DNA from: Marsupella aquatica
Lineage: Eukaryota > Plantae > Marchantiophyta
DNA length: 64,000 nucleotides
Assembly: GCA_973895155.1 (NCBI GenBank)
Contig: OZ316892.1
Span: 26,435,233-26,499,232, forward strand
Reading direction: 5' to 3'
The position numbers were made by a program, and so were the translations under genes. How positions within the stretch are numbered: position 1 is the first letter of the stretch; the number at the start of each line of letters is the position of its first letter. The notes under the pieces were generated by a model that was not told the DNA's origin, did no database searches, and saw only the letters and a list, made by a program, of their open reading frames with translations. Shown here piece after piece: positions 6,800 to 31,933 of this stretch.

Positions 6800-7250
6800 C
6801 ACATAAGATGAAGACACAGGAGGACAGCGAAGACGCTTTGGACAACAATAGAGAGGCCCATATAGGACCAGATAGCAATCCAAGTGACGATGAGAAGATG
6901 AATGCAAAGCGCAGGAATTGATTGACTGGTCAAACACAAGCATTCCGAACTTACAGATGGTTGATTAAAGCTTCTCCTTCCCTTCAGTACCTTTCCTCCT
7001 GCCTGAATCACTGCGCTCCTCCATCATAGCGACACACTACTGCCAAACTCAAATCCGCCCATGTATCTTCAAAAATATGTAATTGCAAGTATGTTACCAT
7101 AGGTATTCTACAGTTTTATTGGAGTCATCTTGCACATAGAATTGGCTGTTGCTACAGTCGCTGCGTGTGATTGCCTGAACGTTTATCTTTTTGAGGCGTT
7201 GCCATTTTACGCCATCTTAAGAGTACAGTACCTGCTGCTAGGGTAACTAA
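6800..7250 (+). pseudogene. Orphan HNL C-terminal tail and 3' UTR relic (also at ~55330-55790)
   Basis: Encodes KMKTQEDSEDALDNNREAHIGPDSNPSDDEKMNAKRRN*, like the tail of the inverted pseudogene, followed by 3' UTR-like sequence. Confidence 0.65.
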
Positions 7251-10200
7251 GAATGAATTTCTCGATGATGGTCTATTCATATTGTGCAATCTGAGTCACT
7301 GTGTGACCTTTTGGTGTCAGTGCCATTCTGCAGCTTAGTTGTTTCCACTGCTCTGGTGAAAGCTGTGAACTGCGAGGCCAGCTCTAGCGGATGGTTGGCG
7401 AATGATTTTAACAAAAAAGGGTTTAGCCAATTTTACTGTGTCCTTGCAGCGATTGCGAGTATTGACATGTTGATCTCTAATGCGTTTTGCACACATGGCT
7501 AGACGAATTCAAGAAGTTGGAACGTGCCATTGAGTCCATCGAACCTGAGAAATTGGATTATATGTCGTCCCAATTTCGATGGATTATAAAAGTGTTATCG
7601 AATGTAGAGGAACTTGTTTTAGAGAGTAACAGATAGAATCCTCCATTCTTTCTCCTAATTTGTAGTGAAATTGGAACGAAGAGGTTCAGATTCCGGAAAT
7701 GACTTTTTTTGATTCCGTCACTCTTCGTACATTTTAGTGAATCATTAGACGTATAGCTTTCAATTTTTTGCCTCGAAAAAACTCGTTGAAATTCATCCAA
7801 AAAGCCAGCATACAACATTGGTGGCCCACAAAAGGGATCACCCGGGGGACCAAAGGTCGGGGAGTCAAGGGGACCGGAGAGGCCCGGTACCAGGACAGAA
7901 GCCAGCCCAGAACCCAGGGAGCCAAACAAGACATTCGACTACTGCAGAAGGAGCGACACAACTCCAAAGACCGGCCAGTGGAGAGGTACCGGCAGGGCAC
8001 CAAACAGTGGGTCCATGATATAGCCAAAAGCAATATTATGAGGCTTAAAATCTTCTATAACCACACTCTCGATCAGAATCAGATCTTGATGCGTACATCG
8101 CAGTCTGTGCCTGAGAACTCAGTTCGCATTATCAGAGGTTTACACTTCAACTTCCCCAAAATTGGCTTGAATCCTCTTGAATTTCCATGGTTCCTCATAA
8201 TTGTAGCGCCCCTGCATTCCAGAATTTGATATTCATATGAGAAGATTTGGGGTTTAATTGACATGAACAGCATCGATATCTGTTGCACTCAGCCTGATTC
8301 AATCAGTTTTCGAGGACTCCATTGTAGTGCCCCAAAGATTTGAGTACACAAATCTTAAACGGAGAAGAGATGATCGTGATTATCATGTTGAACAATCGAA
8401 CATTTTACCCAGCAACATGTGAACACAAAACTCACAGCGACCTCCTGAATCATCTCTGGTATAACTCTGTCCAAGTTAAGGTAAATGATCTTGTCCAATA
8501 TTGCTTAGTCCAGGATCTAGATACTCTAGTTCTTTCTCAGTGGATCTAATTTCTAGTGAGGGAGCGAATCTTGCATGTACTAGCGTGGAAGGCATCACAA
8601 CCGAGATTTCGGTCAAGAAATCCAAAATTCGTCGGGAATATCTGAGTCCGCTGAGTTTCGCCCATAGAACCAGACGCGGCGGACTGATTGAGTTTTGGTG
8701 GGCCAATCTCCGCTGAATTTCGGACCGATATTCCCCTCAAAAACTGGAGCTGAAAATCTGGCCGCACGGGTCGATTGAAACTTGGCGATCGGGGCATCCT
8801 GAGTGCGAGGGACTGATACAGTCATCATCCTGGCTCTTCCTTTAGCAATTGTCCCCAAAGTACTGCTCCTTCCAAATTTGCTGCTAACGATTGAGGTTGC
8901 TAACTTAGAGCTGGAATCACAAAGAGGCGAAGGGGTCGCGAAGGATGCTCAAGAATAGAATGGAATCGCCATAATAACAGCAGTAACAGGTAGGGTATAT
9001 CGTGTTCAGTCGGACGTGAAATCTACTGTCCATACCACTTTTTATGTCCAATGGTAACCTAGTGACAAAGTTCTTCGAAGGAATAAACTGGAGAATGGCA
9101 CGTTTTAGCACTTTTAACATGATTACCTTGTCCTCAATTCCACAGGAAACTTCTTTTTATACCACTGAGGAATGTACTTTTTATCACAAAAGTGGATCGA
9201 CAAGTGATCATGGTGTACAAAAATTCTACTGTTGAAGGGTGCTTCCAAACCTCAATGCCCTTTGTCCCAGTAAACAACAAGGTCTGACCCTGCCACCTTG
9301 CCATCATGTTCTAGTTGGAGGATTCCTGGTCCTAGTGGTAGTAAACAGACTGATTATCGTTTACACTCGAACAAGGAATTGATCGCAAAATCAGCATAAT
9401 CTGACCATGGACACCCCGCCCTAGCTACCGCGCCCTCTCGATTACCTTAGTTCAGCATCATGTCTTATAAATAAAGAGGTCACTTTTATGTAGGTCGCCT
9501 TCAGGTATCTATCATGTGTCCAGATTCAAATCACGGCAGCTCAGGGTGCCGCATATTCTGGACTGGACAATAGAGGTCGACTGTCTACGGTAGCTTTCCA
9601 GTCGGTATAAATTCGTGCTTGTCAATGCGCCTCTATCTCAAAGTTCAAGGCTTTAAGGAATTGTTAATTAGCACATCCAAAAAGCAGTCAGCGCGAATCT
9701 ATTCCACCTGTATGATAGTTCGAATTGTCCTACCATGTGCACCGGCAATCAATTGTCTGTCTGAGTTTCTCTCGACCTATCTGATTAAAGGAACTTGTGA
9801 GTAAGCTAGCTGGTCGAAGTCCAGAATGTACGAGCCATGCATGCACGTACTGTCTATTGTAAGTTGAGCTCTGAATTGGTTGTCACAAACTGATTGCTCC
9901 TTATTCTGATTAATCAGATATCAATCAGACCTCGATATGGAATTTTTACTACACCCTCCCTTGCATTTCCACACATTGAAGAAAGCTGTCTTAAGTTTGA
10001 AATCCTTCGGAGTGAAAGAACTGCGAAGTGAAGCCATGAGTGAATTGCTGGAAGCCAGGCCAAGGGAGTATGCAGGGTGAGTACGAGCAGGTGGATGACT
10101 ACCCCGAGCGCACCAGGAGCACGGCAAACACACGTACAGACAATTGTGAAGTGTCCTATTTTGTTTCAATCGGAATTCGAAGGTCGGGACGTCAAGGCCA

Positions 10201-12782
10201 AAAAGTTTTCCGCCCTTTCAATGGAACTCCTCGATCAGTGCCGGCGTCTGGGCTGCCTCAGGAGGGCGTGCCGTCTTGCATGTGAGCGGATATTTTTGAG
10301 TGTACCGCTTACCCGGCCGAACGCTTACATGCAAGACAACCCTAATTAAGCCTGGAGAGTTTTACTGGCACAACTCTAAAACTATATCAATGCACCGCGA
10401 GCCCGCAAGTCAAAGACGATGCCGCACTCAGGGTACCAATTGGACTGTCAGATCACGTTTCCATCGAAGAATCGAAAAAGAGAAGCGAGGTGATTGTCAT
10501 CTAGCAAGTACTATATCCCAAAACTGTAGCAACTTTGACTCTCCAAATTTAGCTTTTCATTTGGGTGACACCCATGTGAGTGATCCCTTTGCTGTTCAAG
10601 CGTGAAGCGTCTTCCAGGTAGGTTTTGCTGTACATTGATTCGCATCAAGCAATTTGTGCTACCCGCGTCCAGAGAGCAAGTTGAGACGGACTGATGATCA
10701 TGATGGACTGTAAGTTGAGAAATTAATGATTTCGGAGTTCGATACAGAACTTTCAAGCAAGTCCGTCCGAAACCTTCCTGGAAAGCCACCGCGACGTTTC
10801 AGACGCCCATGCAAAGACACCTAAATGTGATCATTGCTATTATTGAGCCCGGCTCTAATTGCACGTCAAAAAGCAACAGCATATGGTGTACTTTGCTACT
10901 TTGCAACTACTAATAAGCCAGGCTCTAATTGCGAGTCAAAAAGCAAAAGCAAATGGTGTACATATGGTATACTGTGCTACTTGGCAAGTGTCCACAGCTT
11001 AAAGAGACTTTCCATATCATGATAAACCCCATTGATCTTTAAGTGTCCCCAAATTGAAGGGACTTTCCATATCAATTATCCCGGTTCATTATAAAACCAG
11101 TTGATTTTCTATATCCCTCAGGGTTATTCTTTCTACTTATCCTATTGTAGCCTTTTTATATGCAGTAGTTACCACGACCCTATCAATGCTAGTGGCATGT
11201 CCTGTAAGTTTAGTGGAGGGAAAGCGCGAGGGAATAAAGAAAAGCAAAGCTTTACTCATCGATCTGATCGAACAACAGAGTCAGCTTCGGATGACATGCA
11301 ATCCCCGAATCTGAAGGGACAGGCAAGGCCAAGGATTGTTGGCCATTGACCATAATATCATACACGTTCACACTATGACAGGTTAATCTGTGGAGAGCTC
11401 TCGGCAAGAAAATGATGTCAGCGAGATCCAAGCTAGGTCGCTAATTTGCAGTAGAGAAACCGAGGGGACAGATGACGATCCACTCGGTGCAAGCTTCTGG
11501 ATACAATTTGTACGAGTACATAGCTTAAATCTGGAGCCTGTTGTGAGTGGGAAATTTGGCACCAATTCAGCAACAAATCAGCCGAGGAAGACGGATCAAT
11601 GACGAAGGAATCAGAGTGGCCTGTCCTCTTCTTCATTTTGGTCTCGGAAGAAACTTCGAAGGTCGAGTAAAATGCCATGCAGAATTTTCGAATCAGCCTG
11701 GCTTCCCAAAAAGAAAGCGACCATGCCGCCAAGTAGTCAAAGCACACACTCTAGCATTTGCAGATAGTAGCAACCTGACTGAAACAGAGAAACACCGAAA
11801 CGCTCAGACAGCTACAGCAATCCCAACAAGACTATTCACTTGATCCAAAACACCAGCTATGCCAGTCTTGCAATCCTCGTTTGAACGTGCTATGACAAAA
11901 TGAGCACTTTAATAGCTTTAGCATTTCATGTACACATATGTAAAATGTCTCGTGAACGTGCATCTAAATGGAACCGGCAAATCAGTCCTTCGATCACCAT
12001 CGTATTCTGGACAGAACGCACCGCTGGTCGGATGGTCTGTTCCCTGGCGCCAAGGGTTATATTGTTGGCAACATCTGAGTTACTCGTAAGCTAGGTAGCG
12101 GTCTGAGTCACTCATGAGTTAGGAAGAGGCTGATCCGACTCAGGCTTCCAACGAGGTTTCTCTGGTCCCTTGTGCTCAATCTTCCAAGGTTTAGGATGCG
12201 AACCAGACCTCCTCCTCCTCGTCATTCTCTCTCTGGTTCGATCACAACTTTGAACATGTCAAAATTACTTAAAGGAGCAATGAGTTCACTTCATCTTCTC
12301 CTTCCTTCAAGAGTTGCATCTTTCCAATATCTTATTTTGAAAACTTCTAGAAATGCATCCGTACATGAAATGCTGTACTCTTAACGTACATGGCATGAGA
12401 ACAGAGAGTTATTGCCATTGCAGCAGAGAGAGAATGGCGAGTGCGTCACAAAGGGAAAACACTAACACAAATCATTTCACCTACAATCTCAATGTGCAAG
12501 AGTGACCCCATCCCAGCCCTTTAATTTATTTTATTTAGTAGAATAGTGCAGAAGGGATCACTTCATACTGTCAACATGTCCGATAACGTACCTGACATTG
12601 AATACTTCTCAAGTTACAAAGCCAAATTTGAGTTCGGCAATGTGCCTAGACCAATCGTTCGTCTGAGAAGAGTGGCGCTTGAGGAAGTATCCGCTAACAC
12701 GGGGAAAGCACTTGAGGGAAGTCGAAGCCTGAGAGCAGTACCAACCCTCGTTATCTCGAGTTTATTGCATTTGGCCAATCAA

Positions 12783-15275
12783 TCAATTCTTGCGCTTTGC
12801 ATTGATCTCCTCATTGTCGCCTGGACCGCTATCCTGCTCCAATATGTTTGAGGCCTTAACAATGTTATCCGAATCGTCTTCACTGTCCTCCTGCGTCTTC
12901 ATCTTCTGTGTCTTATCCCAAACCTCTCTGTCACTGTCCTCTTCGGCCATGTCCAGGACTCTCACGAACAATCCGTCGTGGATATCACATGATATATCAT
13001 AAGACGCAACATACTCATTTACGCACTGTACATAACGCGAGGTTTCGACTTGTCCTTCAGAGGGAGCCAAATTGTAGAGGCCGTGAAGCTTCCATGCAGG
13101 CCATCCTCTCCCGCTTGGCATTCCAAACACAGGTTCCTCAACACTGTCGTTGCCACCTTCAATTTCACCTCCCCACCTCCCCTTTGCATTCCACTGCCAT
13201 GTGACTCACCGTCTCCCTCTCCTCAGATTCCAGGCGGAGAATAATGCTGCAGCGTCGACCCGTAAAATTCGCTGAATGTTTTGCCACCAATCACCAGTCT
13301 TTCGATCTACTCGATCGAACGGAATTCTGGGAGAGAGAAAAGCGGGGCTCATAGCTGGTGTCTCCCGTTCCCCTATGACTCCACGATTCCCTCCTCCTCC
13401 CCGTAGACCATCAAAACTGATCTTAAGATTCAGCAACCAACACAGATCTTGGCGGCTGCGCGAAATTGTGGACTGTGCGCCTGAGCCTGAACGTGTTCCA
13501 TCATTCAAAATTGTCGAGACTATCACTTTCATTTCCGTCAACCTAGAGAGCTTGTTGAATGTCTCCGGCAACGACCTCACCCTTTAAAACAGCAAGTCAT
13601 GGTCGCTCCTCTCAATTACACTGAGTGATTGAAATATCTCTAAATGCCTAATGTGTTGTTAAGTAATCCGAAGACTTTCTACACATTGGAGAATGGCGAG
13701 TGCAAGCAACATAGGAATAATCTGAATCGTAAAATTACCTGATATGTGGCAATAAAATCCCTTTCAAAGGATCCGCCAGAAATTCGCCTCCACTTATCAA
13801 CACTACTATTTGGAGATGTTTGAGGACATGCAATACGTCGACCTGGATTTCTCAGCAATTCGTGCATCCAAATAATTCCTCCATCCTTAATGACCCAAAA
13901 TCCTCGCTCCAAATTCCGCCATCCTTTAGTTGGAGACCGCCAACATGCACTCCATATGTACTTTACAATGCTCAAGGGCCACCCAAACAACACAACTGCA
14001 GCATCCAAGAACATTTCTTGTTCTGAAGGTGCAAGAGCGTAGTAGCAGGGCCTTACCCTAAGTCGATCCATAATCAGGACCGCTAGCAACTTCTTCCGCA
14101 TTTTCCAGCTTGACAAGAAGATCGCTCCACAGGTTTTGGTCATCCACGTCCTCCGCACTCAAATAACTACCCAGGATTTTGAGACACAACGTGAAATTTC
14201 CGCATCTCAGTATCACTTGTTTAATAGAATCTCCAACGAATGATCAACGGCGTAATGATCAAAGAGTACACTTGATTCATGCGGGTTCAAGTATCCCACC
14301 GTAAATGTGTTTGATGGGGACCCAAGCCGAGAATCCGTTGTAGTCACAACTAGCCTACTGTTGCTCCCCTCCAGCCAGATTTCTCTACTCAAAGCATCTA
14401 GCTGGGACTGACTGCACATTGTCAAGAATGATCAAAACTTTCTGGCCCTTCAAGTAACGAGGTACATTGAAATGGTCATAATGTGATCCTTCGCCTTGTC
14501 GTTTCAACCCAATTTCAATCTTTCTCAAAACCTCTTCGCTGCTGTTTGAACTTGCTTCAAAATTGTCTAGATGTATGAAGCATGTGATTGCAAAGGTGTG
14601 CGAGATGTCATGGAAGACCTGTTGTGCTAACATGGTCTTCCCGATGCCACTGAGTCCGACAATGAAGATGGTCTATGTATTGGGCTCGACCAATATACGT
14701 CTGACCTTTCTTGTGCGACTATACAAGTCAACAACATACCCTCGACGACTAAGCGCATCAGCCTCATCTCCGGATCGAAGGATAGACTCTACATGTATCT
14801 AGAGTTGCATAATTGCTAGTCAGAAGCAAACAGTAACTCTTCTATCCTGAGCTCTGAGCAATATGCGGCTCACACTAAAAAATCTTGCCATATCTAGACC
14901 AGGCGACTATACGTGACTCGCATGCCTCGATTGGATTTCTCTACGAGTAAACGGATAAGAAATCTCCTCTCCAGGTCTCACACAATATTTTACCACCACA
15001 CAGTTAACGTCAATCTCTGTCCTGTCAACTATTTTCCCTCTCCCAATGCACACTTAAAGGCACGTCCACGAAGACAAATTGCATGATTTACAGGGACACA
15101 AGATATGATACCTGGCTGAGGAACTGCTGAAGAAATGAGACTGAAAGCACTTAGTTGATTGTTTCCCCTTTGGCTTGCATAAGTCAGAATGATTTGTATG
15201 AACAGAATAATACACACCCATGTTCCCCCTACTTGACTCTTCAGGAACCACATGAAGATATTTTCCGAGGAGTTT
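12783..15275 (-). pseudogene. Inverted, degenerate HNL paralog (exon 3, NB-ARC, LRR remnant, acidic tail)
   Basis: Minus-strand fragments VPEESSR..HTNHSDLCKP, GLSGIGKTMLAQQVFHDISH, REIWLEGSNSRLVVTTT, PCYYALAPSEQEMFLD, WMHELLRN, RSLPETFNKL and RVLDMAEEDS...AKRKN, in several frames. Intron 4 is joined directly to a late LRR at about 13585, and no hydrolase exon 2 is visible. Confidence 0.88.
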
Positions 15276-17544
15276 AGTAAAACAATTCTCACTGTGAGGC
15301 TACTAGCAACCAACATAGCTGGAATTACCAATTAACACTAGCAAGGTGGGGGACTATAATACTTGAAACAATGGATGAGCGAATCAATGGAGACATTTTC
15401 TCAAAAGGACTACCAAGCTAGTTTAATAAACCTTGGGGCAATCTAAGGGATCAGTGACCAAGAGTTGCGGAACTCGACTACCTTAACACTTAGTTCCGGC
15501 GTCGCTGACTCCGACGCCGAGTTCCCTTATGGTCCAGGCCCGGATAGGCCATCTGGGGAAGACTTAACATGGGGAGACTTGTGAGCAATGGGAAGTGGCA
15601 CTGGCGAAGGCAAGGCGCCAAGCTAGTGCCACACACTAAGAACCTTGGCTAGCTGAGAGCTGGTCGGGTCAAGGGGGAAATGGGTTGGGCTCAAGGTCGA
15701 CCGTCTGGACCCCGGACGGACTTTGAGTATGAGCTCCTCTTGGGCCCAAGGCCAATGGAGTTGATGCCATGGGCAACGGACGCTTGGGGCGCTAGTTATG
15801 GTCCGATCCGGGTTAAGGCAGTCCGGGGCCTCGAGCGACAATGAGACCTGAGGGCCTAGACATGAGCAATGGGTCGGCCCGATCACAATGGGCTAAGGCA
15901 CTCCGCTTGCGGATGCCTAACAAGAAAGTTATGGGCGTTGCCAATTGGTGGCGCGCCCATTATGCGCAATAGGATTCGGGTTGGAGGCCATATGTTTAGG
16001 GACCAAAGCTGGTCCGGGGGTGACAGGTCTCCAGAAGCATATATGAGGGGAGTGGTGTCTCCCTGGGGGCCAAGGGCAAGCCGAAGTCGTGAGTGGTGAT
16101 CGGACACTAAGGAAAAGCGTTAAACGGAAATGACGATATCTTCCCAATAGGGAGTCTGTTGGAAGACTTCTTGGGTGCGTTGGAAATATCTCAAGGAGGG
16201 CTACGTCCTCCTGATCTCAGCTTAGTCTGGGGGCGCCATAGGTTCTCAGGGTTGGCGGGTGTTAGCTCGCCCGCTTGCCAAATCCTGCCAAACAGCAGCC
16301 AAGCCGCGTTCAGTCTCCCAAGGGAGCTTGCGTTGGGGAGGCAAGGCCAAGTAGGCATGGAGGTTGAGTTCCAAGGGCGCTTGGCCCCTAGACCACCAGT
16401 GGAGCGATAACCGGGAGTTGGTTGCTAGAGTCGGGGTCATTCTGGTCCCGACGTGTTGGGACAAGCTTTAGGACAAGCTGCGCTATTTGGGCCATGAGCA
16501 TGTCCTGGGGACAGGGCGGTCGGTTGGTGATGGATAGGTACGAGGGGGGGACCCGGGCTGCACCCAAGGCAGGAGTTGTTCTGGAAGAACAGTGGGTGTT
16601 AGTTCTGGTCCCGGCTTATGGCATCGGGAGGACCTATTGCAGACCTACTTACCAAATGTCTGTTGAGCTTGAGTCAGGATGCTAGACTTGGGAGATCTAG
16701 ATCCTCATGGGTTACTTACCATATTGCTTGGTTGCTTGTGCAGACAATGAGGACCGTTGAGGGACGGTCGTGTTAGAGAGCAAGTGCGGCTTTGTATGGG
16801 AGGGGCCGTAGGTGGAGTTGAGGGCCCACCAAGTTGCTTGCTCGAGGAGTTTCGTGGAGGCGTTCGGGCACCAAGGGCACTTAGGCATGGGTGTTGGCTC
16901 GGGGGTCTCACTATATGGAGGACCCCCCCATCACCTGCGATGTTTTCATGCCTAGACCCCCATACTTATTAAGTTGAAATTTTTTTTTCCTCCCTCTTTC
17001 TTTCTTCTAAGAGTCTAAAATCCAAATTGTATTGCCCCTATAATTTGTGAAGTAAAGTGTCACATATCAATATAAAATGCCTAGAAAGAAAAGATAAGTC
17101 TATGTCAGTACCTTGCGAAGTCGTATGTCAGACATGGCACGCCCTGCAACAGTTCTTGCACCTTTGTCGACCTTAAACTTTGATCATTTCAATGCATCAT
17201 TTATATTGTGTACCTAAAAGGTCATCCCAATATAAACCTTACGTGCATAAGTGGGATGGCCTTTAAGGTCACAACATAAATAATCCATTCCACCCATTGA
17301 TCACCAATCCCATGCTCCATCCATACTCCATTTAAAACTTATGTTGAGAGATGTAACATGTGACGGAGGGGAATTGAACCCCTAATTGAGAAAGGATCTC
17401 AAGTTGCCAATCCGTCACCCCCTATCCTATCCCACTACACCCACTAATATTAACAAAATAAAACATATATACAAACTCTCAAAAACTAAACAACAAAATA
17501 AAACATATATACAGACTCTCAAAAACTAAACAGTAACATGATAT

Positions 17545-20500
17545 TCATACCATTGTTTGAAGATATTGATCCAAAGCACGTCTATCTATTGGATCCAACA
17601 CATAGATACGATCCATAACCCCTTCTTTCATGGTTAAACTAACACTAGCAATGACCATTTCAATATCCATCCATTTCAAATCAGTGGTATCATATCTGAA
17701 TTCACTTTTGCTCTTACCAATAGGACTATACCAATTTAACAACAGTTCACAAATGTTACCTGATTGCCCTGCAAGTGGAGTTGGCCTATCCATCAAATCA
17801 ATTGGTGACCGACAATTGCCCCACCTACTGCCATACTTCTGTCTCATTTGGACAATCCGACCCAACCAAAAATATTTCTTACCTGCTGAGATTGCCTCCA
17901 CCACAACCTTATTCTTTCCTCCCTTTCTTTTTCCAGATCTAGTACTTGGAGCAGGACTATCATCAGACTCAAATGCAATTGCACAATCAGTGCCAACATC
18001 AACAAAACATGAGTTAGGATTGACTTCTTGCACTTTTCTCTTGCCAGTACTATAGTATAGCACTTGTTTCACCCTTGTCAGCCTATCTTTTGACAAATGC
18101 GGATTTCCTACCAACTGGCTTACCAGAGTGGATTTGTAAATCACCTTGCCTTCATAAGTAACAGTAGGCACTACCTTGGTACGATTCTGTACATTAGTTA
18201 CAGCATGGACAACTGATCCAAACACATGCCGAACTTCATGACCTAATGTCTCAAGCTCATCTGAGGGGTCTACATCAAACTGTATATCATCTCTGTGTAC
18301 ATCATCTGAATGCATCTCAGGAACAACAATGGGATCTGGTTCTGTTAACCATGCATCTATTCTATTCAGATCATCCTCAGGATCTTCCAATTCATGAAAA
18401 TCTCCAGTTGGGCGAGGACCTATGTCTGGTGGTTGGTGCTCTACTTGCTCCTCAGAATCATTGCAAACAATTGCTTCCTTCAGAACCACCTCTAGTGGCC
18501 AGGTCTCACTTTCCACAACCCAAGGACATGTCCACCATCTCTTTCTAGCTGCTGGTAAGGAACTTTGTGGAGACATCTGCAATTGATGCATAAGATCCTT
18601 AGCAGCAACAAAACCTTCTTTAAGGGCTGCAACCACTAATTCATTAGTCTCAATGAGAGAATAGTCAAGTAGATTTGGTGCTTCCTCCCCTTCCCCTATA
18701 GGATGAATCTTCCCCCATACATGATCTTGTTTCTTATGTGAACGACCTATCTTCAAGCCTTCTGGTCCATATTCTAGGGCAGCAAGCCGGTTCAGTCCAA
18801 CAGCACTATCCAACAGAGAGCCAAAATCATAATTCCGCTCATGGCCACTCATGCCTCCTACCTTGCTGAAGAAAATCTCACAACAATCTGAACCTAGCAA
18901 GTGGAAGGGAACACCTAGATGTGGGAACTTATCTCGAAAGGCACAAATTAACAGCACAATGAAATGACATGACATGTTAACATCATGAAAAGCCTGAATA
19001 GACATCATGTCTTTCTCAGTGTGTGCTGCAAAGTTCCCACCCACTGAATGGTCACCAAACCTCAACCACAATCTCCACAAACGTAGAAAGAATGAAACCT
19101 TGGATGCTAACACAATACGGGACCTCAAATCATGAACTGGAGAAAAGAAAATATCTAAGTAATCTGCACAAATCTCCAAGTACAACTGAGTTCCTAAACT
19201 TCGTTCATGTTGTACATCTCTCCTCTCATACATATCTTTCAGACATTGCTGCACTCTTCTTGCTGCTATTCGTTGTGGACCTGCCCAATTCTGCCGGTCA
19301 GTCCTATTCACATCATCCCAAGCCATGCCATGTTCAAAATTGGATAATGATTGTAGACATTAGCTACATAAGATAAAGATGCATGTTGATCTCCTAGCAC
19401 TAGTAAAGAAGACACTCTGTCTAAGGGGTTTATCATCTTTTTCCCATTATGAGGTTGGTCTTGGTCACCAAAGCCATACAAATCTCCATTTGGTAGAATT
19501 GACACAGAGTATGTCCACCCTTCCCACCCAACTCCGTACCTTGGGTATGATCCATTCTGCCCTCTGTAATCTTCCAGCATCAGCTTTCGGCGACGTGCAT
19601 CACCATCACTAGCATGTCCAAGCAAAGGGCCTACCATAGCTCTACAATATTCATCCCAAAAAGCCTTTAACTGGACCCAATGCTCTCGTACCCAAGAAGC
19701 TGTGAACTTATTACAAGTTGGAAGTGCACACACAGCCAATTTAGGTAAGGACTCATGCAGAGGATTCACAATCACAACTCGGGCATACATGCACTTGGGG
19801 CATTGTTCAAATGTACTTACAATTTTATCATACCCCTCATCACCTTCACCTACTAGAATTTCCAAACCATAGGAGCATACATGCTGCTCTGAAGGTCCAC
19901 AGAAACCAATGAGAGTATCATACTTTGCCTCCCACCTGAAACACAGACATGCAATTTTTCAATATCACAGCAATTCCACCCAAGTGCTACTTGTAAAGTC
20001 ATTAAAAAAACAATTGGAAAAATGTCCAGTTCCAATTACCTAGGGCGTTCTTTGATCCTTGTTTCATCCTCAGCAAAGATAACAGGCACATCCCCCTCAA
20101 TGCCCAATGAGTGCTTTGCAGCAGACAACACTCTAGCAATCTCCTGAAAGGTTTCCTTCCGTAACCCGGTTCGAAAAGGTGTGAGTTTTGCTCTATCACG
20201 TTTTAGGGTCACAAGGCTAGGGGCTGTCAAGTTTCGTGCAAAACAATGAGCAACTTGACGGCCCCCAAATTGGAACATAGCCTGAGCAATAGCTCGAGTC
20301 CTATTACTGTAACGATTACCTTTTGGCTTCCTGCCTAAATTGCGAGCTACATCCTTCAAGAAATCCCACAAACCCTCCTTACCACCAAATGCACCATTCC
20401 TGTGTCCATTCAAAATACTCCTAAGAAACAATCTCAAATCCTTCCTGTCTGCTGCAACTCCTAACAACTCCTCTAGTTTTCGTTTCCTGGTGCTCAAGGC

Positions 20501-22120
20501 ACATACTTTCTGAGCCTGCAAAGCTAACAACCAACGCTCTTTTCGTCGCACAGAGTTCAGGTTGTGCACTTGATCTCTTAACTCTATGTTGGTCAAATAA
20601 TCCAAACGTATACCACCAGCAGTGGTTCGGCTCCCTCTGTGGACTACTGCTTCCGCTTCCCTGTGCACCCGTCCACGAAAATCATCTTCTAGTCTTATAG
20701 AATCACATTCACTACAAGTTAGATTTTCAAATCCTCCTCCATTCTGTGATAACCTCAAGCAATCCTTGTGTCTAAAACAGCCTGCTATACTCACAACACT
20801 CTCTCTACTTGGATGGAAAACATCCAAGCAACAACTTGGCTCACAATGCCATGTAATTCCCCCAGACTGATCATCTAAAATGCCAGAAATATCATAAGAT
20901 ATACCCTTCCATAACAGTCGAGGCACACCTCTCTCTACCCATAATCCCCAGCAAAGCAAACTCAGACCAAGATCAACAGATTCACACACACCTGAACCTG
21001 AACCTGAACTGCTGCCTGTCCGGGACCCATCATCTTTAAAGAACTTCAAAATCCCGCTCTGACCAGGATGTAGGTCCCTAGAATCAGTCCTCTTTGGCCT
21101 GCCCCTCTTCCCAGGCCTCAAGGCAAGCATTTTTGTGTCATGCCTAGTCTCCAATGCATCCAAGTGATCTCGACTCACTAAGTGTGTCCTCAAATTGGGC
21201 TCCAAGGTAAGCTTCTTGGGGCACAAGTCAGTGTGAAGCATTCCACAGACAGTACAGCGAACCTTAAACAGGAAAGACCTGTTTACATACTCAGGAGTAC
21301 TGGGATCAGGAACAATAGAGAATAGTTTGCCATCATCCCCAAGCTCAGCATTCAATCGCTGAACTATCTCAACACCTACTTTGATGGCGTCTGCATGATC
21401 ATATTCTGGCTTCTCAGAGATGTCTGCTACCTGAACCAAAGTAGAAGGAATGCCCCTTCTCCGACAATAGTTATCCTTGTGCTTATTGAAGACCAAGTGT
21501 TTGGTCTTAAAATTACTAAAGCAATTGGAGATGGATTTAGGGTTCTGAGAGTTGTCTGCATTGCCATAAGTTTCCCTACATTCAAGACACTCCAGATGCC
21601 CTCGAACATCTGTCCCCTCATCCCAGGTACGAATTCTCCAATTGTGATCACCATAACCCTTCTTATGTACCCATTTCTCTAACCTCATCCACTCATCTTT
21701 CCATAGCTTTGATGGGACATCTCCCATCAATTGTGACTCAAAAGAAGCCCTTACAGGGGAGGGTGCTAGTGCCGTTGGCCCCAGTTGTGGTGTCCCAGTA
21801 TTTGGACCCAATGATGCAGGAGTGCAAGGATGACAGGGTACTGGTGGGATCCTCCCACCATCTCCAAGTTCTTGTTGTACAACAATAACTCTTCCATCCA
21901 GCTCAGACAGATCAATTAATTTCTCATGTACAAGTTTCACTCGACCAGGAAGTCTCTCATCCCAAAAATCAAAGTCAAAGTCTAGAGTAGAGGCAATACG
22001 AGCCCTAAAATCATGTAGGGTGTGTCCTTCTTTGAATGACAAAACACAAATTGGTAAATCAGCCTTGTCATCCCCAACTTTGCGTATTAATTTAACAGAG
22101 TTGGGTTTAGGGGCTGCCAT
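17545..22120 (-). CDS. P-element-superfamily-like DDE transposase (~1490 aa reconstructed), one intron and one 1-nt frameshift
   Basis: Exon 22120-20040, GT-AG intron 20039-19936, then 19935-17545 with a frameshift near 19340. Motifs FAEDETRIK-RWEAKYDTLIGFCG, HASDGD, DQPHNGKKMINPL (DxxH), DRQNWA and LGSDCCEIFFSKVG resemble P/THAP9-type catalytic blocks. The N-terminus has two C2H2-like fingers and an AT-hook (KRGRPKR). Confidence 0.75.
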
Positions 22121-22615
22121 TGCAATACAAATCTAGAACATGCATAGCACCATTGCTTTTGGAGTTGATAACAGAAAGACCTGCACAAATACATTTGAAA
22201 TACACACAAGGGAAACACATTAGGATCTTCAAGAGATGCAATGACAACATACACATTCTCATGTAATGTACATAATGTCAGCATACATTTAACAATAGAA
22301 GTGCTAATAGGCCAAAACACTTTATAATGCAATCCATCATACATGCAAATGTATTCAGTGAAAATCATGATATATCGCTAAAGTTGGATAAAATATCTTT
22401 GGACAAAATATCCTTTTCGCCTGCTTTTCTAACAATTCCCGAAGTTTAGTGCTTCTGCTCATCAAAATACAGCACTATTAGTGACCTTAATTATGACAAA
22501 ATGTCAACACTAATAAAATTGGGTACTACCACCCATGATGCACCTTAAGTATGTGCCTTGCTCATACCCCACTAAGACGTTGAAACCTAAGTAATAGGTT
22601 TGTTCATTATTCAGA

Positions 22616-23290
22616 TCACTGGAGCCATGAAATGTGGTCCCTGATTGGAGTCTTGAGGTGTGGATCAATAGGATGACGGGGGCAATAAAACATCTGTCGC
22701 TGTTGTCCATGTGCTTCATGGTCCCAGATGTCCCTATCATGAGCGAACCCTTTGCTTTTGATCATCTGGAGACAATCTGTATGCCAGGCATTTGGACATC
22801 GTAGACATTGTACCATGTTCTTGACCATCTGACCCTCAAGACTCTGATAACATGTCACACATGTATGCAGTGGGCAGGACTTTGCATCAGCTACCAAACA
22901 CCCAAAGCAATAAAATCGTACACAAAAATGATCAGAGCATTTTCGCACAATTGTAGGTGACGGTCCCACAGTGCGGCACCCATAACACATGGCCTGGTCC
23001 TGGTTACAATTTGGGCAAAACCATGGCTTCCCTCCATGATGGAGGGGAAGGACTACACAGGGGCAAGAGTCATTAGGGGCTTCATCTCCAACCACATAAT
23101 GAAATTGCCTGTGACATGGCCCATCACAAATTACCAACTTCCCACCATGCTCACAAATTGCACAAACATGAGGGCTAGTTTGTAGAATCTCTTGCTCAGA
23201 GAACAACGGAATACGCAATACCTCTTCCAAAGAGGCTCCTCTGTCAGAGGACTGTGTTGCTTTCTTTATGTTTGAAGTCCTTGTCGGCAT
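22616..23290 (-). CDS. EDM2/NSD-type tandem PHD-finger protein (224 aa) inside the transposon
   Basis: CAICEHGGKLVICDGPCHRQFH...WFCPNC...CYGC...CPLHTCVTC...CLRCPNAWHTDCL...YCPRHPIDPHLKTPIRDHISW matches the order and spacing of the PHD cassette of Arabidopsis EDM2 as recalled (CAICDNGG...CPLHKC..C...CRRCPKSYH..C...YC..H.ID..L.TP.RDH). Confidence 0.8.
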   Translation of the reverse strand: MPTRTSNIKKATQSSDRGASLEEVLRIPLFSEQEILQTSPHVCAICEHGGKLVICDGPCHRQFHYVVGDEAPNDSCPCVVLPLHHGGKPWFCPNCNQDQAMCYGCRTVGPSPTIVRKCSDHFCVRFYCFGCLVADAKSCPLHTCVTCYQSLEGQMVKNMVQCLRCPNAWHTDCLQMIKSKGFAHDRDIWDHEAHGQQRQMFYCPRHPIDPHLKTPIRDHISWLQ

Positions 23291-23606
23291 GGTTCAACTG
23301 CAATCATCACAAAGCACATCACATATGAGGGGGACATGATGATAGTGAGCAATCCATAGACAAAGATAAGGTTAATCATAGCACCTGCTCCAATGATCTG
23401 CAAACCTCCCTCCCAGATGAAGTCAACTACACAGTGCAACCTGAACACCCACCAACCAAGACATACATAAATACAATGCCAGCTTGCAAAACTTTGCCAC
23501 ATAATGGGAATGAAAAATATTCTCATATATCATGGATGGTACAATTGCAGCCTTGCAAACAAAGGCCTAGTCATATATGAACAACGCATCCATGTACTAT
23601 CAGGGA

Positions 23607-24005
23607 CTACAATGTCAAGCATCCATGGGTTGTAACCTTAGCTTGATCTGGAATACTATCTGGGGCTACAATATCAAGCTCAGTTGAATGTGGAATACTA
23701 TCAGGGACTACAATGTCAAGCGTGTCCGGGATGACAATCTTGCGTAAAAGACACTCATTTTGAGGCCAAATGGTTGGCCTTATACAAGAGCACTTCCAAC
23801 GACGTGTGACAACTTTGCCATGCTTTCCCATGTATGTCCTAGTAACAAGCCTTCCACGCATTTTCAAGCAGAAGCAATGGAACCATTCAAAATTCCCATC
23901 ACCAACCCTGCACTTGACACAAGGTTCACACCAACAGCATTCATCTGGATGCTGCAGAAGGAGCTTCTCATAATTCGCTTCTAATGTAATGCCCAATATA
24001 GCCAT
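23607..24005 (-). CDS. Cys-rich, PHD-like ORF (ING-type EWFHxxC...WxC) inside the transposon
   Basis: CCWCEPCVKC...EWFHCFCL...RWKCSC, followed by a short repeat (DIVxPDSIP). May be an exon of a larger gene. Confidence 0.45.
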   Translation of the reverse strand: MAILGITLEANYEKLLLQHPDECCWCEPCVKCRVGDGNFEWFHCFCLKMRGRLVTRTYMGKHGKVVTRRWKCSCIRPTIWPQNECLLRKIVIPDTLDIVVPDSIPHSTELDIVAPDSIPDQAKVTTHGCLTL

Positions 24006-24849
24006 GGCACTATTTTTTTATACTCGGTGAATGGCCAGACGATTAGACGTGCAATGACAGGCAACTTACAATTCACTAGGTACACTATGTGTTCTAGCAA
24101 ACTGCTTCACCGCAAGTGTTGGTGCTCACTGCTGCAAGCGCTGATGACAACCTCTACAATTCCTTTTGCAACCTGTGAACAAAATTGAAACCACCATTCA
24201 ATTTCTAAGTTTCAAAAACTTCCCATTACATGAAGACAACCAATTGGCCATGCATGTTACTACAGCAATAAAATAATAACCCAATCGCTCAACAGACCTG
24301 AATAGCTAACCTGAATAGGATCAAGTTCAGAATCCAGAATGGTAATGCCCTTGCCCAGAAGCTTGAGAAACAAAAGAGAATTTAAAATCAAGCACGAGCG
24401 TCATCCACGTCTTGACCAGGCCCGCCACCCAGTATGGCTGGAGGCTGTGGTCCCCCCTGGCTGAGTAAACACTTAAAGAAGTCTTCTCTTCTAGATGACT
24501 TAAAGAAAATTGCAGGAACCAGCCAACGGGACACCAAGGCATGTAATAGAGAACCAGATTTGTGCGGGTGTGTGGGGGACGACAGAAGTCAAGTTACAAG
24601 ATTTTTTTCCTGGGGTCCAGCCCACGGATGGAGATCATGTAAGGTGGTCAATCATGGCAAGTGCAATCATTGGAGACCTGTACTCGCGGTTACTCTAACG
24701 ATGCATCCAAAAAACATGTGCGTCAAGTTGTCAATGCGGACACAGAAGGAGAGATGAGTATGGACAACGTCGAGACAAATGATGACAATACTGAGCTAGT
24801 ATTCGGCTGGGAAGTTGGAGCTGGATCTCAGCAGTGGCTCCAAACCTTA

Positions 24850-24959
24850 TCTGCGAGGGCATGGCGAGCTCTGGAGGACAAAATACTCAAAGAGCTTATC
24901 GCCATTCACGGAGCTCAGAACAGGAATTTTATAGCTGAAAAGCTAAACGGGCAGATCAG
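24850..24959 (+). pseudogene. Captured fragment of an R2R3-MYB first exon
   Basis: Translates as AWRALEDKILKELIAIHGAQNRNFIAEKLNG. After a 1-nt shift it reads RS-G|GT, matching the MYB R2 repeat WRxxEDxKLKELVxxYGPQNWNxIAEKLxGRSG and its usual intron position. Confidence 0.65.
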
Positions 24960-25199
24960 GTGCTTCTCGTCTATGACCGCTACCAGATCGACTCTAGGTG
25001 TGCCATGCGTGATAGATTTGGGCGTCAAATAGTAGCAAGCAAGCAAGTATGATTGTCAAAGTAGGCAGCGCCTACCTCCCGATTGAGCAACGCAGCAATG
25101 CAGCTCCAATCCTGGCACTCCGGTTTGAGATATTGCAACACTCCCTGCAGTAGCCACCTCCCGTTTCAGCAAGCTAGCAGCTCCCGTTTTAGAAAGCAG

Positions 25200-26125
25200 C
25201 AATGCAACACTCTCGACACCCACCTCCCGGAGCGCAACACTCTCGACACCCACCTCCCGGAGCGCAACACTCTTGCTCGATCCTTCACTCCCGGGTTCAC
25301 TTCAAGCAGCAGCGCAGCTGCAAAGTCTCGCTCTCCCCTTCACTCCCGGGTTCACTTCAAGCAGCAGCGCAGCTGCAAAGTCTCGCTCTCCCCTTCACTC
25401 TAATCAGCACACGCAACTGAGAAGTCTCGCTCTCCCCTTCACTCTAATCAGCGCACGCAACTGAGAAGTCTCGCTCTCCCCTTCACTCTAAGCAGCAGCG
25501 CAGCTGAGATGTCTCGCTCTCCCCTTCACTCTAAACAGCAGCGCAGCCAGGAACTCTTGGTCGATCCTTCACTTCAAGCTGCAACGGCAGCAGCACAGCC
25601 GAGAGCGCAACACTCTCGCTCTCCCCTTCACTCCAAGTAGCAGCGCTTCACTCGATCCTTCGCTCGATCCTTCACCGAGAACTCTCGCTCTCCCCTTCAC
25701 TCTCGCTCTCCCCTTCACTCCTTCGCTCGATCCTTCGCCGAGAACTCTTGCTTGATCTTTCACTCCAGCCGCAGCAGCAACGCAGCTCGATCCTTCTCCG
25801 AGAAATCTTGCTTGATCCTTCACTCCAGCCGCAGCAGCAACGCAGCTCGATCCTTCACTCCAGCCGCAGCTCGATCGTTCACTCCAGCCGCAGCTCGATC
25901 CTTCACTCCAGCCGTAGCTCGATCCTTCACTCCAGCCGCAGCAGCAACGCAGCTCAATCCTTCACTCCAGCCGCAGCAGCAGTGCAGTCGAGAGCACAAC
26001 AGGAGTCGATCCTTCACTCCAGCAACAGTGTAGTCGAGAGCACACTCTTGCTCGATCCGACCTTCACTCCAAGTGCAGTCGAGAGCACACTCTCGCTCGA
26101 TCCGACCTTCACTCCAAGCAGGAGC
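25200..26125. repeat. Complex tandem-repeat array near the right end of the transposon
   Basis: Many copies of CCTTCACTCC, CTCGATCCTTC, CTCGCTCTCCCCTTCACT and CAGCCGCAGC in units of about 24-50 bp. Confidence 0.9.
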
Positions 26126-26962
26126 ACAACTGGTTTAGACCCCGTTTAGACCATTTGCTGCAAGGTACAAACAAAAGAGACTCTGTTGAGGCAAAGAGCG
26201 GGTGGGGCCAAAGGGATAGTGGAGGGAAACGACACGGGAGGAGACTGACAAGGGCCAATTGAGGTAAACGAGACACGTTAAACAGAAAAATTTCAAACTT
26301 AATCCCGGTCAAACCCTAAACGTGAGTCCCCATAAAACCAGATCATTCTCAAATTCTTGCCATGTTAACATATTAGAAAAATTAGGAAAATATATTGGGA
26401 ATGTTATGTGTGCCACGTGTACCAATGACATAGTGACACGTGTACTTTACATAGTCCAACACAAAGACCCCCTAACTTCTTTGTATGCCTTCCATCTACA
26501 AAGTCAAAAATATTAATATCCCTATTATTCTTACAAGTTGTCCAACATATAAAGTTGGCCCTATTGTTCTTACACAAATCTTCTTAAGTCTTCCGAGAAA
26601 CCCAATTAACGGACCCTATACTTCGTCGCACGTGATATGAGATTTTCGCGGAGTGAGACCCCCGAGGGTGTTGGGATTGGTGAGGGCGTTGGGTGGCTAG
26701 CTAGGTCCACCACTTGTATGGACACATGGACATCTCGGCTAACCAAAGTGAAAAAAAATTCAAAAAAAGTTTTTTCTCTCTCTCAAGTCTTGAGACTGAA
26801 ACAAATCAAATATTTTTTTCCCATTTTCTTGGGCGTTGCAACTTGGTGGCCTCTTTGAGATGACATGGTAACTATCAGGTCGATTGATATAAGGTCGACT
26901 AATGGAGATGACTAATAACTGATAGGATGGCTGATCTCAAAAAGAGCAACTCCTGTTTGAAG

Positions 26963-27170
26963 CCCTGGGCCCTCAGTCCAAGTAAAATTAGTGAAGTCAA
27001 CCCCCTTGCGATTGTGACCCCGTTGCTTTTACTCCTTGTTATTTCTGTTTTTCTATAAAAGGTTGTCTTGTTATTGATAATATTAATAATTATTAGTTCA
27101 AAATGAGTAAAAACCAACCTTCAAACATTCGCATGTACTCTGCATATTATTTAAGACTGAGGCCTCAGGG
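26963..27170. mobile_element. 208-bp MITE with 8-bp TSD
   Basis: TIR CCCTGGGCCCTCAGTC / GACTGAGGCCTCAGGG; exact TSD GTTTGAAG at 26955-26962 and 27171-27178. Confidence 0.85.
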
Positions 27171-27238
27171 GTTTGAAGGACTTACCAAAGGCCAGAGCTA
27201 GAATTGCGGTGACAGGTTTGCAAGAGGTAGAAAATGAT

Positions 27239-28416
27239 AAACAAAAGCCCGGATGGACTCCTATGTTGGCCCCACCTATCCCCATGGACTATGACAGGGG
27301 ACAGACCATTTTACATCTAATTATGAGACAGCCCAACTGCAATTGGATGATAAATACCCTCATTAATTATTTTTGTCAGCCTAAGAACATTATGTGTTCC
27401 CCTCAAAGTCAAATTGAGAATCTCAATGAAATGGAGTGAAGATGCACATTTAAAATCTTCCACAGCTCCGTCGTGGCAAAGTACTCGAAGTGCTCCTTGT
27501 AACAAGAGGAGCGCTCTCTAAAAAATTGGATTCATATTCAATATTTCCCCAAAAGTTCTCAAGTAGCTCTTTAGCAATAAATAAGTCAAACACTATTTAT
27601 AACAAGAACAATGGTCTCTCAGAAATGGTATTCGACAACAATGCTTATGCAAATTAAAATTAGCTCCACAATGAAAAAAATTATACAGTCTCGATAACAA
27701 AAGCAATGTTATATAAAATACAAGATTATGTAAAAACATTTCTGAAAGTTGTATAGTCATTCCGCAAACTGTCAATGCCCTAGAACCTTAAGAAAATGTG
27801 TAGAAAAATATGAATCCATTTGTAAAAATTGAGGTTATTTGGGCTTTAGATTCGCCCCTTAGCCACCTTGGTGAGAATTGTTTCTTTGGTTCATGAGTTA
27901 TTGTGTTGCTTGCTTCCGCTTTAGGGCGCTTATAAACATTAAAAAATATTTTTGAGTAAATTAAGTTCATTTGGTATTTTACCATTGAGAAAATTACCTG
28001 AGGCAGTATGAGTAAAATGTGAAGCACACAATTTACTCAAAGTTTCATAAACCATGAAGGCCAAATCAGGTATTAATATAAGGACCTAAATGTACTTAAT
28101 TTATATTTCATATTTTTATTGAACTGTGTTGGGGGAATGGATCAAAACTTTCAATTAAAGTGCTTTGGCCTCTGACAAAATATCTTTAAGACATGAGTGA
28201 GGACAGAGTTGAGTTAGTGGCAGGGAGGACAGAGTTAGTGACAGGGAAAGTCTTTGGAGAGAAGTGATGCTTTGGTCATTGACAATGTTTTGTATGGACA
28301 GAAAAGTAAACACTAGTATCCATGCATATTTTTGTGTTTTAGCCCAGTCCATCCAAGTTTCATTTATCCATGGGGGCTTCATGAAGAACCTATTAGTCCA
28401 TCCGGGCTTTAAGTTC
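27239..28416. mobile_element. Non-autonomous TIR element with 10-bp TSD (Mutator-like)
   Basis: Inverted termini share AAAGCCCGGATGGACT. TSD AGAAAATGAT at 27229-27238 and 28417-28426. Empty site at about 42937-42960. Confidence 0.8.
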
Positions 28417-30175
28417 AGAAAATGATGTGCACGTTGATCAATTGGTCCTTGGCGGGATGGTAGTCTTTTTCTTCTATTTTTGAACTGAGGGATAGCCAAC
28501 GCTTTTATGAGGGCAATGTTGTATCCACCCAATGCATCTACTAGATACACCCCCAAAACAAGCTCAACATGCATAAAACTTTCAAATGTTTTTGGGTTGT
28601 GACACTGATCCTCAAAGTGGGTGATTTTAGTGATTTGGGATGACAGAGAATATAGTAAAATACCCCATGGATAAAACGCCCAGACAGAACTCCTTGAGCA
28701 AGCAACTTGGTGCCCTTAGTTATCACTTCCAGCAACAACTCCCATACAAAGTTGCACTTGCTCTTTAACACAATCATTGCTCAACGGCCCTCATTATCTG
28801 CACAAGCAACCCAACACATTGACAAGAAACCCAACATGATCTAGGATCTCCAAGACCATTGTTTTGACTCAAGCTCAACAATTGTTAGTACGTAGGTCAA
28901 TGACTAGAACCTTTCGGGCCCTTGTGGCCTTGCTATAAGCCAAAGCTAGGGCTGACACCCACTATTCGTCTAGAATAGCCCCTTTATCAGGTGCTGGCTG
29001 AGCTTCCCCACTTTCTATCTATCACTGGCTGACCTCCTAGCTTCCAGGACATGCTCATGGCCCTCAACCCTCGCCTCAACCTTGATTCCAAGTGAACCCA
29101 ATTGCGTGGACATGCAACTAACTTGCTATGTCCATAACTTTCTAGTTAGACGTCTGTAAGTATTAAAGTGCCTTATCCCGTTGTGATTGGGCCAACCTGA
29201 TGCTCATGCCCAGGCTCTCAAATCAGAGGTCCCGGTTGACTACACCTGCATGGCGCCGTATCTTATGCGTCAAACGTCTGTTTTGTAGGAAGTAAACTTC
29301 TTTGGCCTTGGGCCCAAGAGGAGCTATCACTCAAGCCCTCAGAATGCAAAGTCAATCTAGGGGTCCAGGCGGTCCACCTTGAGCTCAACATGACCCAACC
29401 AGCTCCCAATGCTAGTCTAAGTCTTTTGTGTGCGTCACCAACTTAGCGCATTCAATTTGCCTTTGCTAGTCCCGTTGCTAGTGCACCGCTTCATTGCCCA
29501 CTACTCTTAGTTCCCATATTTAGTCCCCACTAGATGCCCATTCCGGAGGCCTGGACCATAGAGAAGCTCAACGTTGGAGTCAGCGACGCTGGAGCTAAGT
29601 GGTAGGGTAGTCACTTGAGTTCCATGACTAGAATGAACCTTCAAGTGTGAGCACAAGTTTGTGTGCCTCTTGGGTATACCCCCTCCCATGCATGGCCTGT
29701 GGGTACCTGGAACTCAAACACCTAGCTAGTACAATTATGAAAGTAAATAAGTTATACCCCGAGTTATACTAGAGGCATAACCTAACACATGTGAAGCGGG
29801 ATGTGAAGACAACGTACATCCATGTTTCAAAAAGATCCATTTTTGGTTGCGTCCACCTTTGCCCCCATCTAAACCCATAGAAAATAGCAAGTCTGCGCCC
29901 GAGTCTGTGAAACTAAGGATGTTTTGTCCCTTAATTTCCTGGTTTTGTCGAGCGGTGTCTATTTTTTGTCTCACCGCTTCTGGTCCTTACATGTAAAAGG
30001 CCGCGGTGTATTATGACAGCAGGGAGCAACACATGTTGTGCTCCCGGTTGTGCTCCGCTGACCCCGCTCCTCCCAAGTGGATGCTCGTTCTTCTTGTTCT
30101 CTTTTGTTTGAATTCAAACTGGTTTCTCCTCGTTTGATGTGCTCTGACTCTCTAAGGATGTACTTATGTCCTGGG

Positions 30176-31675: not shown

Positions 31676-31933
31676 GTCCTGGGTGACTCTTGGGGAGGCC
31701 AGAGAACAATATTCAATACACAATTTGCAACATTCACTTGGACTCATGACTCAATGTTTACTATCTTGTGTGTATACATTTTGTACTCTGAGTTCTTGAT
31801 TACGTGTGGAGATTTTTCACGTTGTCTGCTGCTTATTTAGTTTTACACTCCCAATCACAAAGTCCCATGTGCAAGTCCTTATACCTGCAATTCACCAAGA
31901 AATTGTAGAAATTCCTAGAATTCAAAAACCAAC

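Follow-up and report, generated by a model that had tools for sequence, protein, structure and literature searches.

The stretch of the Marsupella aquatica genome analysed here (contig OZ316892.1, positions 26,435,233 to 26,499,232 of the forward strand; 64,000 nucleotides in all, hereafter the window) contains a 9,769-bp element at 16898-26666. The element encloses a large transposase gene on the minus strand and a smaller open reading frame (ORF) upstream of it in the same orientation. Both termini of the element read CTCGGGGGTCTCACT, forming a perfect 15-bp inverted repeat, and both are flanked by the 8-bp sequence GGTGTTGG. Exact matches to CTCGGGGG, with which the inverted repeats start, occur twice in the window, and both are the element ends. 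The window has 346 pairs of perfectly inverted 15-mers separated by less than 20 kb, and the element's own pair is the only one flanked by an 8-bp duplication. An earlier sequence-only reading of the locus had proposed a transposase of the P/THAP9 superfamily, with an 8-bp target-site duplication (TSD) and with termini other than the usual CA; both the duplication and the termini were confirmed.

In the predicted structure of the transposase gene, two exons are separated by a 104-nt GT-AG intron, whose removal rejoins a DETxIKxRxxW block that is unbroken in relatives. Exon 1 (2,081 nt, about 693 codons) corresponds to the ~690-residue N-terminal exon of the sequence-only reading. A one-base loss near 19336-19338, where contigs from all four public sequencing runs compared have an extra base (19336/19337), interrupts the frame of exon 2. 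The window copy is thus defective, and intact copies likely exist. Reading through the break, with an X at its position, yields a protein of 1,489 residues that aligns over its full length with relatives of 1,470-1,530 residues at about 38% identity. The coordinates of these and other features are collected in Table 1.

All of the catalytic blocks that had been recognised by eye were found in the read-through protein: EDETRIK (the DETxIK block) at residue 684, SDG at 803, DxxH at 853-856, DRQNW (the DRQN block) at 906, and SDxxExFFS at 1042. The conservation of the catalytic residues given in Table 1 was counted in an alignment of 108 proteins. Target-site duplications of 8 bp accompany the terminal inverted repeats in both of the two complete elements found. 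Kolobok elements duplicate TTAA, which was not seen here; the duplications are the 8-bp sequences GGTGTTGG and GTTTTCAT. The range given for P elements is 7-8 bp (PMC3698922). Catalytically, the P superfamily is defined by a DDE triad with a D(2)H motif following the second D (PMC8230255), and this arrangement is present as D685/D804/D853xxH856/E1046. The distance from DxxH to the catalytic E is 193 residues here vs 192 in P transposase (PMC8230255).

The assignment to a superfamily was evaluated by profile searches and by comparison of predicted folds. When the Protein Data Bank (PDB) was searched with a profile of 108 sequences, the top match was the Drosophila P transposase (6P5A, E 0.0062), across the helix-turn-helix and the first catalytic Asp. 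An AlphaFold model of an intact relative, P0002 (predicted local distance difference test score, pLDDT, 83; predicted template modelling score, pTM, 0.79), has the P-type architecture of a helix-turn-helix, a split RNase H core and a helical insertion domain. In a Foldseek search with this model, 6P5A was matched at E 5.8e-11 with a template modelling (TM) score of 0.73, followed by RAG1 (2e-4) and Hermes (1.4e-2, TM 0.24). Alignment to 48,161 chains with VIA-align again placed 6P5A first, at a Z of 24.9 and a root-mean-square deviation (rmsd) of 3.4 Å over 411 residues, far above the next ranks, RAG1 (8.4), ProtoRAG (8.1), ISCth4 (8.0) and Hermes (7.8, rmsd 7.8 Å). In Atlas features, P/THAP9 clusters were found at 0.91-0.95, and the best neighbour of the transposase core was a mainly basidiomycete cluster (0.96). 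The comparison with Drosophila P transposase called for by the sequence-only reading therefore favours the superfamily it had named: the best profile match and the best fold match are both to this enzyme and not to a hAT transposase; a best match to hAT had been set beforehand as the outcome that would count against the P assignment.

The hAT superfamily deserves consideration because its members also have 8-bp duplications and a C/DxxH motif, and Hermes is among the fold matches. The RNase H core with a helical insertion is common to hAT (Hermes), RAG1 and Transib; their fold scores, however, are about one third of those of P (Z 7.7-8.4), and Hermes lies far below P by E value, TM score, Z and rmsd alike. 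No Pfam match to a hAT dimerisation or BED domain was found in any protein scanned. The fold comparisons largely refute the idea of a hAT element, which we regard as very improbable.

Relatives of the transposase were found in a metagenome scan (nine loci) and among named organisms. One metagenome contig, L003, carries a complete element of 6,096 bp, with a 26-bp repeat that opens with CTCGGGG, an 8-bp duplication, and an uninterrupted frame of 1,520 codons; two further loci (L004 and L006) have the same end motif. Named relatives come from Riccia sorocarpa, Calypogeia fissa and Adiantum nelumboides, with a more distant one in the coral Desmophyllum pertusum, and their proteins are annotated as hypothetical or unnamed. 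The family profile matches 738 representatives at E <1e-30, and no transposase relative was found in viral or prokaryotic genome contigs. The tree was restricted to proteins with a core coverage of at least 80% (164 of 338), which removal of near-duplicates reduced to 123; the Desmophyllum protein was left out because of its coverage. A plant clade of 41 sequences was obtained with a local support of 0.999. It includes all seven named plant proteins kept, the other 34 being unnamed, and the window protein clusters with four Riccia proteins (support 0.985), a position that by itself points to a probable liverwort host. The relatives in the liverworts Riccia and Calypogeia and in the fern Adiantum thus belong to one well-supported clade, and the suggestion that the element may represent a distinct lineage is borne out by this clade and its own conserved termini.

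CTCGGGG opens all six ends examined in the window element and its relatives. A related 8-mer begins 33-36 bases inside the tip in the same six ends, from which the pattern was itself derived, against a background of 14 per 128,000 positions. This subterminal motif is a candidate transposase-binding site, comparable to the internal sites of P.

Several observations weigh against placement in the P superfamily. Canonical P termini start with CA, from which the CTCGGGG ends differ. Sequence identity to P transposase is 12-15%. Pfam gave no match to the three transposase frames of the window, and none of its P-element families reached the cut-off in relatives; the best sub-threshold matches were PF21788 (E 0.13, in one of 14 relatives) and PF12017 (E 0.006, in one of 34). 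The profile check came out divided, the Pfam part failing and the 108-sequence profile leading to 6P5A. A smaller profile of 14 sequences had no match in the PDB; a search with the single C-terminal frame gave nothing useful there either. The fold was modelled on P0002, which is about 41-46% identical to the window frames, and not on the broken window copy. The trees hold this family alone, with no curated P, Galileo, 1360 or THAP9 sequence included. The smaller ORF of the window element, which encodes a PHD-finger protein, is absent from the complete L003 element and from the eight other loci, most of which are partial. Finally, the E value of 0.0062 for 6P5A is borderline with respect to the Repbase convergence rule for iterated searches (E <0.005; PMC4455052), a rule that uses a different method.

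The residues of the GTP pocket bear on the same question. P transposase is the sole transposase described as needing GTP, which it contacts through K385, K400, V401, S409, F443, D444, N447 and D528 (PMC7776569). By equivalences taken from a sub-threshold hidden Markov model alignment to 6P5A and from motif registers, D444 is kept in 38 of the 39 plant-clade sequences that cover it and D528 in 29 of 33. At the same time, and again unfavourably to a P assignment, all 41 plant-clade sequences have N for K400 and W for V401, and a hydrophobic residue (L/A/M/C) stands at the N447 position. Since the pocket residues are only partly kept, GTP use is uncertain. The Trp that replaces V401 is W910 of the DRQNW block; it might take the place of the GTP base or act like W319 of Hermes. 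Outside the plant clade, this position is W in 37, V in 19 and F in 13 of 82 sequences, and a general Trp-hairpin rule was rejected for the wider family. The D444 position is also variable there.

These substitutions could be taken to mean that the family is a separate superfamily, sister to P, which has the same fold, CT...AG ends and DNA-binding modules of its own, GTP-independent end processing, and an invariant DRQNW Trp with a putative role as in Hermes, whose insertion domain has a functional Trp319 (PMC8230255). The failure of the Pfam P models, the borderline profile link to 6P5A, and the size of the family, with its 738 representatives, agree with such a separation. The very large fold gap (Z 24.9 vs 8.4) does not, nor do the retention of the D444 and D528 equivalents, the match in duplication length, and the lack of a fixed Trp outside plants. 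We consider a sister superfamily unlikely. The element is not a canonical animal P/THAP9 element. Quite probably it represents a land-plant branch of the P superfamily that has diverged and lacks THAP, its fold being predicted to resemble that of Drosophila P. On this evidence, the enzyme likely works as P transposase does, and the broad catalytic-domain definition of the superfamily likely applies to it.

Exon 1 was also modelled separately (pLDDT 77, pTM 0.30), and the low pTM means that it can be read as separate domains only. The N-terminal domain resembles ubiquitin-like and DIX folds weakly but consistently in this model: nearly all Foldseek rows were beta-grasp folds, yet at E >0.03, while VIA-align gave Z values up to 7.8 (rmsd 2.5 Å, 77 residues). 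It is followed by two C2H2-type fingers, an AT-hook-like GRP motif and a Cys cluster, after which come a coiled region and the helix-turn-helix. The fingers, GRP motif and Cys cluster, all mentioned in the sequence-only reading, are conserved columns in 10 aligned N-termini. The Cys cluster, which likely binds zinc, had no Pfam or Atlas assignment, and nothing above 0.79 was found in Atlas for residues 120-500. At the other end of the protein, residues 913-1063 of P0002 form a predicted beta-barrel that VIA-align matches to BAH, chromo and DNA-methyltransferase BAH domains at Z 5.5-6.8; such values may reflect merely a common arrangement, though many of the rows are BAH domains.

No THAP domain was recognised, as had been noted from the sequence. 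Searched at E values as high as 1, neither the window frames nor 30 aligned N-termini gave a Pfam THAP match. The C2CH spacing is absent from the window protein and from six of eight relatives, with two occurrences at unrelated places. A THAP fold was not among the matches listed in two fold searches with the N-terminal model, which barely cover residues beyond 228. The lack of THAP here is expected, since such domains are described as confined to animals (PMC7776569).

With profiles built from plant sequences, the ubiquitin-like domain was found in 7 of 41 plant-clade sequences and in none of the 82 others, the first finger in 9 and 1, and the second in 13 and 0. The corresponding numbers were 16 and 20 for the Cys cluster and 20 and 21 for the barrel. 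These counts overstate the absence of domains, given that the profiles are biased towards plants and many of the sequences are incomplete. Even so, the Cys cluster and C-terminal barrel are old parts of the wider family, and the ubiquitin-like domain and fingers look like additions of the plant clade. Distant members carry other modules: a C-terminal PTM/DIR17-type Tudor domain (P0012, P0014), SAP (P0086), a C1-like domain (P0099), and a weak ubiquitin-hydrolase match (P0096).

Six public runs (four studies, three coded organisms) contain 35-81% of the element's sampled words. In three of the four runs compared, a contig links the two flanks directly, skipping 9,777 bases, i.e., the 9,769-bp element and one 8-bp duplication. 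The target of the insertion is itself a high-copy repeat; such empty sites therefore belong to that repeat and do not imply an orthologous allele, and the joints may be paralogous. Further insertions with different flanks were seen in five contigs of run X4 (0.52 agreement) and in one of X5. In run X1, contig depth was 450-530 across the transposase gene vs 13.8 on the unique flank, and reached several thousand close to the right tip; these depths, a rough guide that gives no copy number, were taken as a sign of many copies and short derivatives. The X1 depth of the right subterminal region (26599-26652) is more than ten times that across the gene, which suggests many short non-autonomous derivatives. 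The high-copy repeat that hosts the insertion (about 16500-16897 and 26667-26714) has an X1 depth above 15,000; its copies end near 26710 with variable flanks, and its far end was looked for and not found.

One might instead regard the locus as a domesticated host gene next to an unrelated PHD gene. The protein is long and multi-domain with chromatin-type modules, and 10 of 16 transposase variant sites are synonymous among those listed (40 of 357 variant rows). Such a gene would hardly be bounded by perfect ends, a duplication and empty sites, be frameshifted, lie within another high-copy repeat, or, as far as depth is a guide, so greatly exceed its unique flank. The element ends and the other insertions refute domestication, to which we give next to no credence; the element is real, multi-copy and recently mobile.

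The smaller ORF encodes an NSD-like PHD-finger cluster (PF23004, E 5.8e-08, above cut-off). Nine full-length stand-alone homologues, 43-82% identical, were found among proteins of 123-394 residues, and no relatives were found in viral contigs. In each of the four runs compared, depth over this ORF tracks depth over the transposase, which indicates that the PHD gene travels with the family of the window element. Its absence from L003 and the other loci means that it is not needed for transposition; the PHD gene is optional cargo. Its product may act in chromatin targeting or anti-silencing. Several homologues (P0213, P0216, P0218) open with a short basic peptide, which in P0213 resembles the histone H3 tail; in the window copy, this likeness is largely lost. 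Two other short frames inside the element were rejected as genes: one at 24643-25029 (+) with a Myb match under cut-off (E 0.0087) and a Cys-rich one at 23610-24017 (-) with no Pfam match. Both are possibly decayed cargo. No Rfam match was found within positions 14000-32000 of the window.

Table 1. Positions of the element, its genes and its predicted protein features in the window.
Feature	Position	Strand	Basis or remark
Complete element	16898..26666	.	9,769 bp; paired ends and empty-site joint
TSD, left copy, 8 bp (GGTGTTGG)	16890..16897	+	sequence
TSD, right copy, 8 bp	26667..26674	+	sequence
Left terminal inverted repeat, 15 bp	16898..16912	+	
Right terminal inverted repeat, 15 bp	26652..26666	-	
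Subterminal 8-bp motif, candidate transposase-binding site	16932..16939	+	left end
Subterminal 8-bp motif	26627..26634	-	right end
Nested tandem-repeat array, 12-87 bp units	25204..26118	.	near promoter-side end
Second ORF, 224 amino acids, NSD-like PHD-finger cluster	22616..23290	-	upstream of transposase, same strand
Exon 1, about 693 codons (2,081 nt)	22120-20040	-	ends just past first catalytic Asp, D685
Intron, GT-AG, 104 nt, predicted	19936..20039	-	splicing inferred from relatives
Exon 2	17545..19935	-	most of RNase H core, helical insertion domain, C-terminal domains; stop at 17545
N-terminal beta-grasp (ubiquitin/DIX-like) domain, predicted	21860..22105	-	pLDDT about 90
First C2H2-type finger domain (C178, C181, H208, H214)	21437..21757	-	
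Second C2H2-type finger (C289, C292, H313, H319)	21161..21265	-	
AT-hook-like GRP motif	21095..21115	-	no Pfam match
Cys cluster (C390, H451, C454, C469, C472)	20696..20959	-	common to non-plant relatives
Helix-turn-helix region, homologous to that of P transposase, approximate limits	20170..20353	-	profile alignment to 6P5A residues 105-247
First catalytic residue D685	20066-20068	-	D in 89/89 covering sequences
Second catalytic residue D804 (SDG)	19605..19607	-	D in 96/98 covering sequences
DxxH motif D853-H856	19449..19460	-	H in 98/98 covering sequences
W910 of DRQNW, aligned with V401 of the P transposase GTP pocket	19285..19287	-	profile alignment
Third catalytic residue E1046 (P transposase E531)	18877..18879	-	E in 93/93 covering sequences
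C-terminal beta-barrel, predicted BAH-like, approximate limits	17556..17997	-	from P0002 model region 913-1063

The following scheme would accommodate these features. Intact copies would encode an enzyme of ~1,490 residues that likely moves the element by cut-and-paste. The role of THAP would be taken over by the P-type helix-turn-helix together with the Cys cluster and the plant-specific fingers, modules that likely bind to the CTCGGGG tips as well as to the motif 33-36 bases inward. With its D685/D804/E1046 site, the enzyme would cleave the element at both ends and insert it into the target at an 8-bp stagger; the helical insertion domain likely holds the ends in position as in P. The least supported step would be one of chromatin reading, by the BAH-like tail and also by the separate PHD protein, for target choice or relief from silencing. 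Short derivatives and the window copy itself would be mobilised in trans.

The element lies among other repeated sequences. At 1-4822, 12372-15270 (inverted), 35198-42449, 46973-54286 and 60014-64000, the window holds five or more genes or pseudogenes in an array, with an alpha/beta-hydrolase exon, NB-ARC and leucine-rich repeats; direct copies are 88-95% identical to each other and about 74-79% identical to the inverted copy. Immune receptors of this hydrolase-NLR (nucleotide-binding, leucine-rich repeat) type are typical of liverworts. A 4.8-kb segment downstream of NLR copies is duplicated at 6327-11079 and 54843-59638 (95% identity). Another repeat is present in two rearranged copies (26753-31935 and 42463-46980), whose segments are 74-89% identical and occur in mixed order and orientation; fragments of it lie at 15463-16864 as well.

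The known system closest to the element is that of Drosophila melanogaster P (PDB 6P5A/6PE2) and vertebrate THAP9. The likeness extends to the predicted helix-turn-helix, split RNase H core and all-helical insertion domain, the DDE triad with D(2)H and the same DxxH-to-E spacing, a coiled region before the helix-turn-helix, the 8-bp duplication, and, at either end, a short terminal repeat plus an internal motif (PMC7776569, PMC8230255, PMC3698922). In contrast to P/THAP9, the plant element has no THAP signature, encodes a protein about double the length (1,490 vs 751 residues) and of low identity, adds ubiquitin-like, C2H2, Cys-cluster and BAH-like parts, ends in CTCGGGG, has the K400, V401 and N447 equivalents replaced, carries a PHD gene, and resides in plant hosts. 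P elements are also known from Chlamydomonas. Among fungi, they have been reported from Allomyces and Pucciniales (rust fungi) (PMC5751038). These are likewise non-animal members of the superfamily but, by their description, were detected through Pfam P domains (PMC5751038), which miss the plant family. GingerRoot provides a precedent for a DNA-transposon group with members in aquatic animals and seed-free plants and none in seed plants; its enzyme is integrase-like and unrelated, and its duplication is 6 bp (PMC6839031).

We found no description of P elements in land plants in the literature; Repbase, Dfam and genome-paper supplements, which could list such elements, were outside the scope of the search. 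Table 1 of PMC9033089, a list of plant transposable elements, contains no P superfamily, the available part of PMC6839031 gives seven DNA superfamilies in plants without listing P, and the available parts of PMC5718144, PMC12477816 and PMC10045372 contain nothing on land-plant P elements. These proteins escape the standard Pfam P models, so that annotations of liverwort and fern genomes probably lack this family, although it is multi-copy and recently mobile, and label its genes "hypothetical".

A more far-reaching view would be that of an old, still mobile and unrecognised plant group, sister to P, that has dropped GTP, with the invariant Trp replacing the GTP base or driving hAT-like end processing, and with BAH-like and PHD readers steering insertion through histone marks or countering silencing. 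We hold this to be improbable; if true, P chemistry would be tied to that of hAT and RAG, and the plant catalogue would gain a superfamily. As a branch of the P superfamily, the family shows what stands in for THAP outside animals and is a candidate native tagging tool for seed-free plants. A natural branch with the P fold but a half-changed pocket would also let the origin of GTP dependence be tested, and L003, an apparently intact element, could be used for this question.

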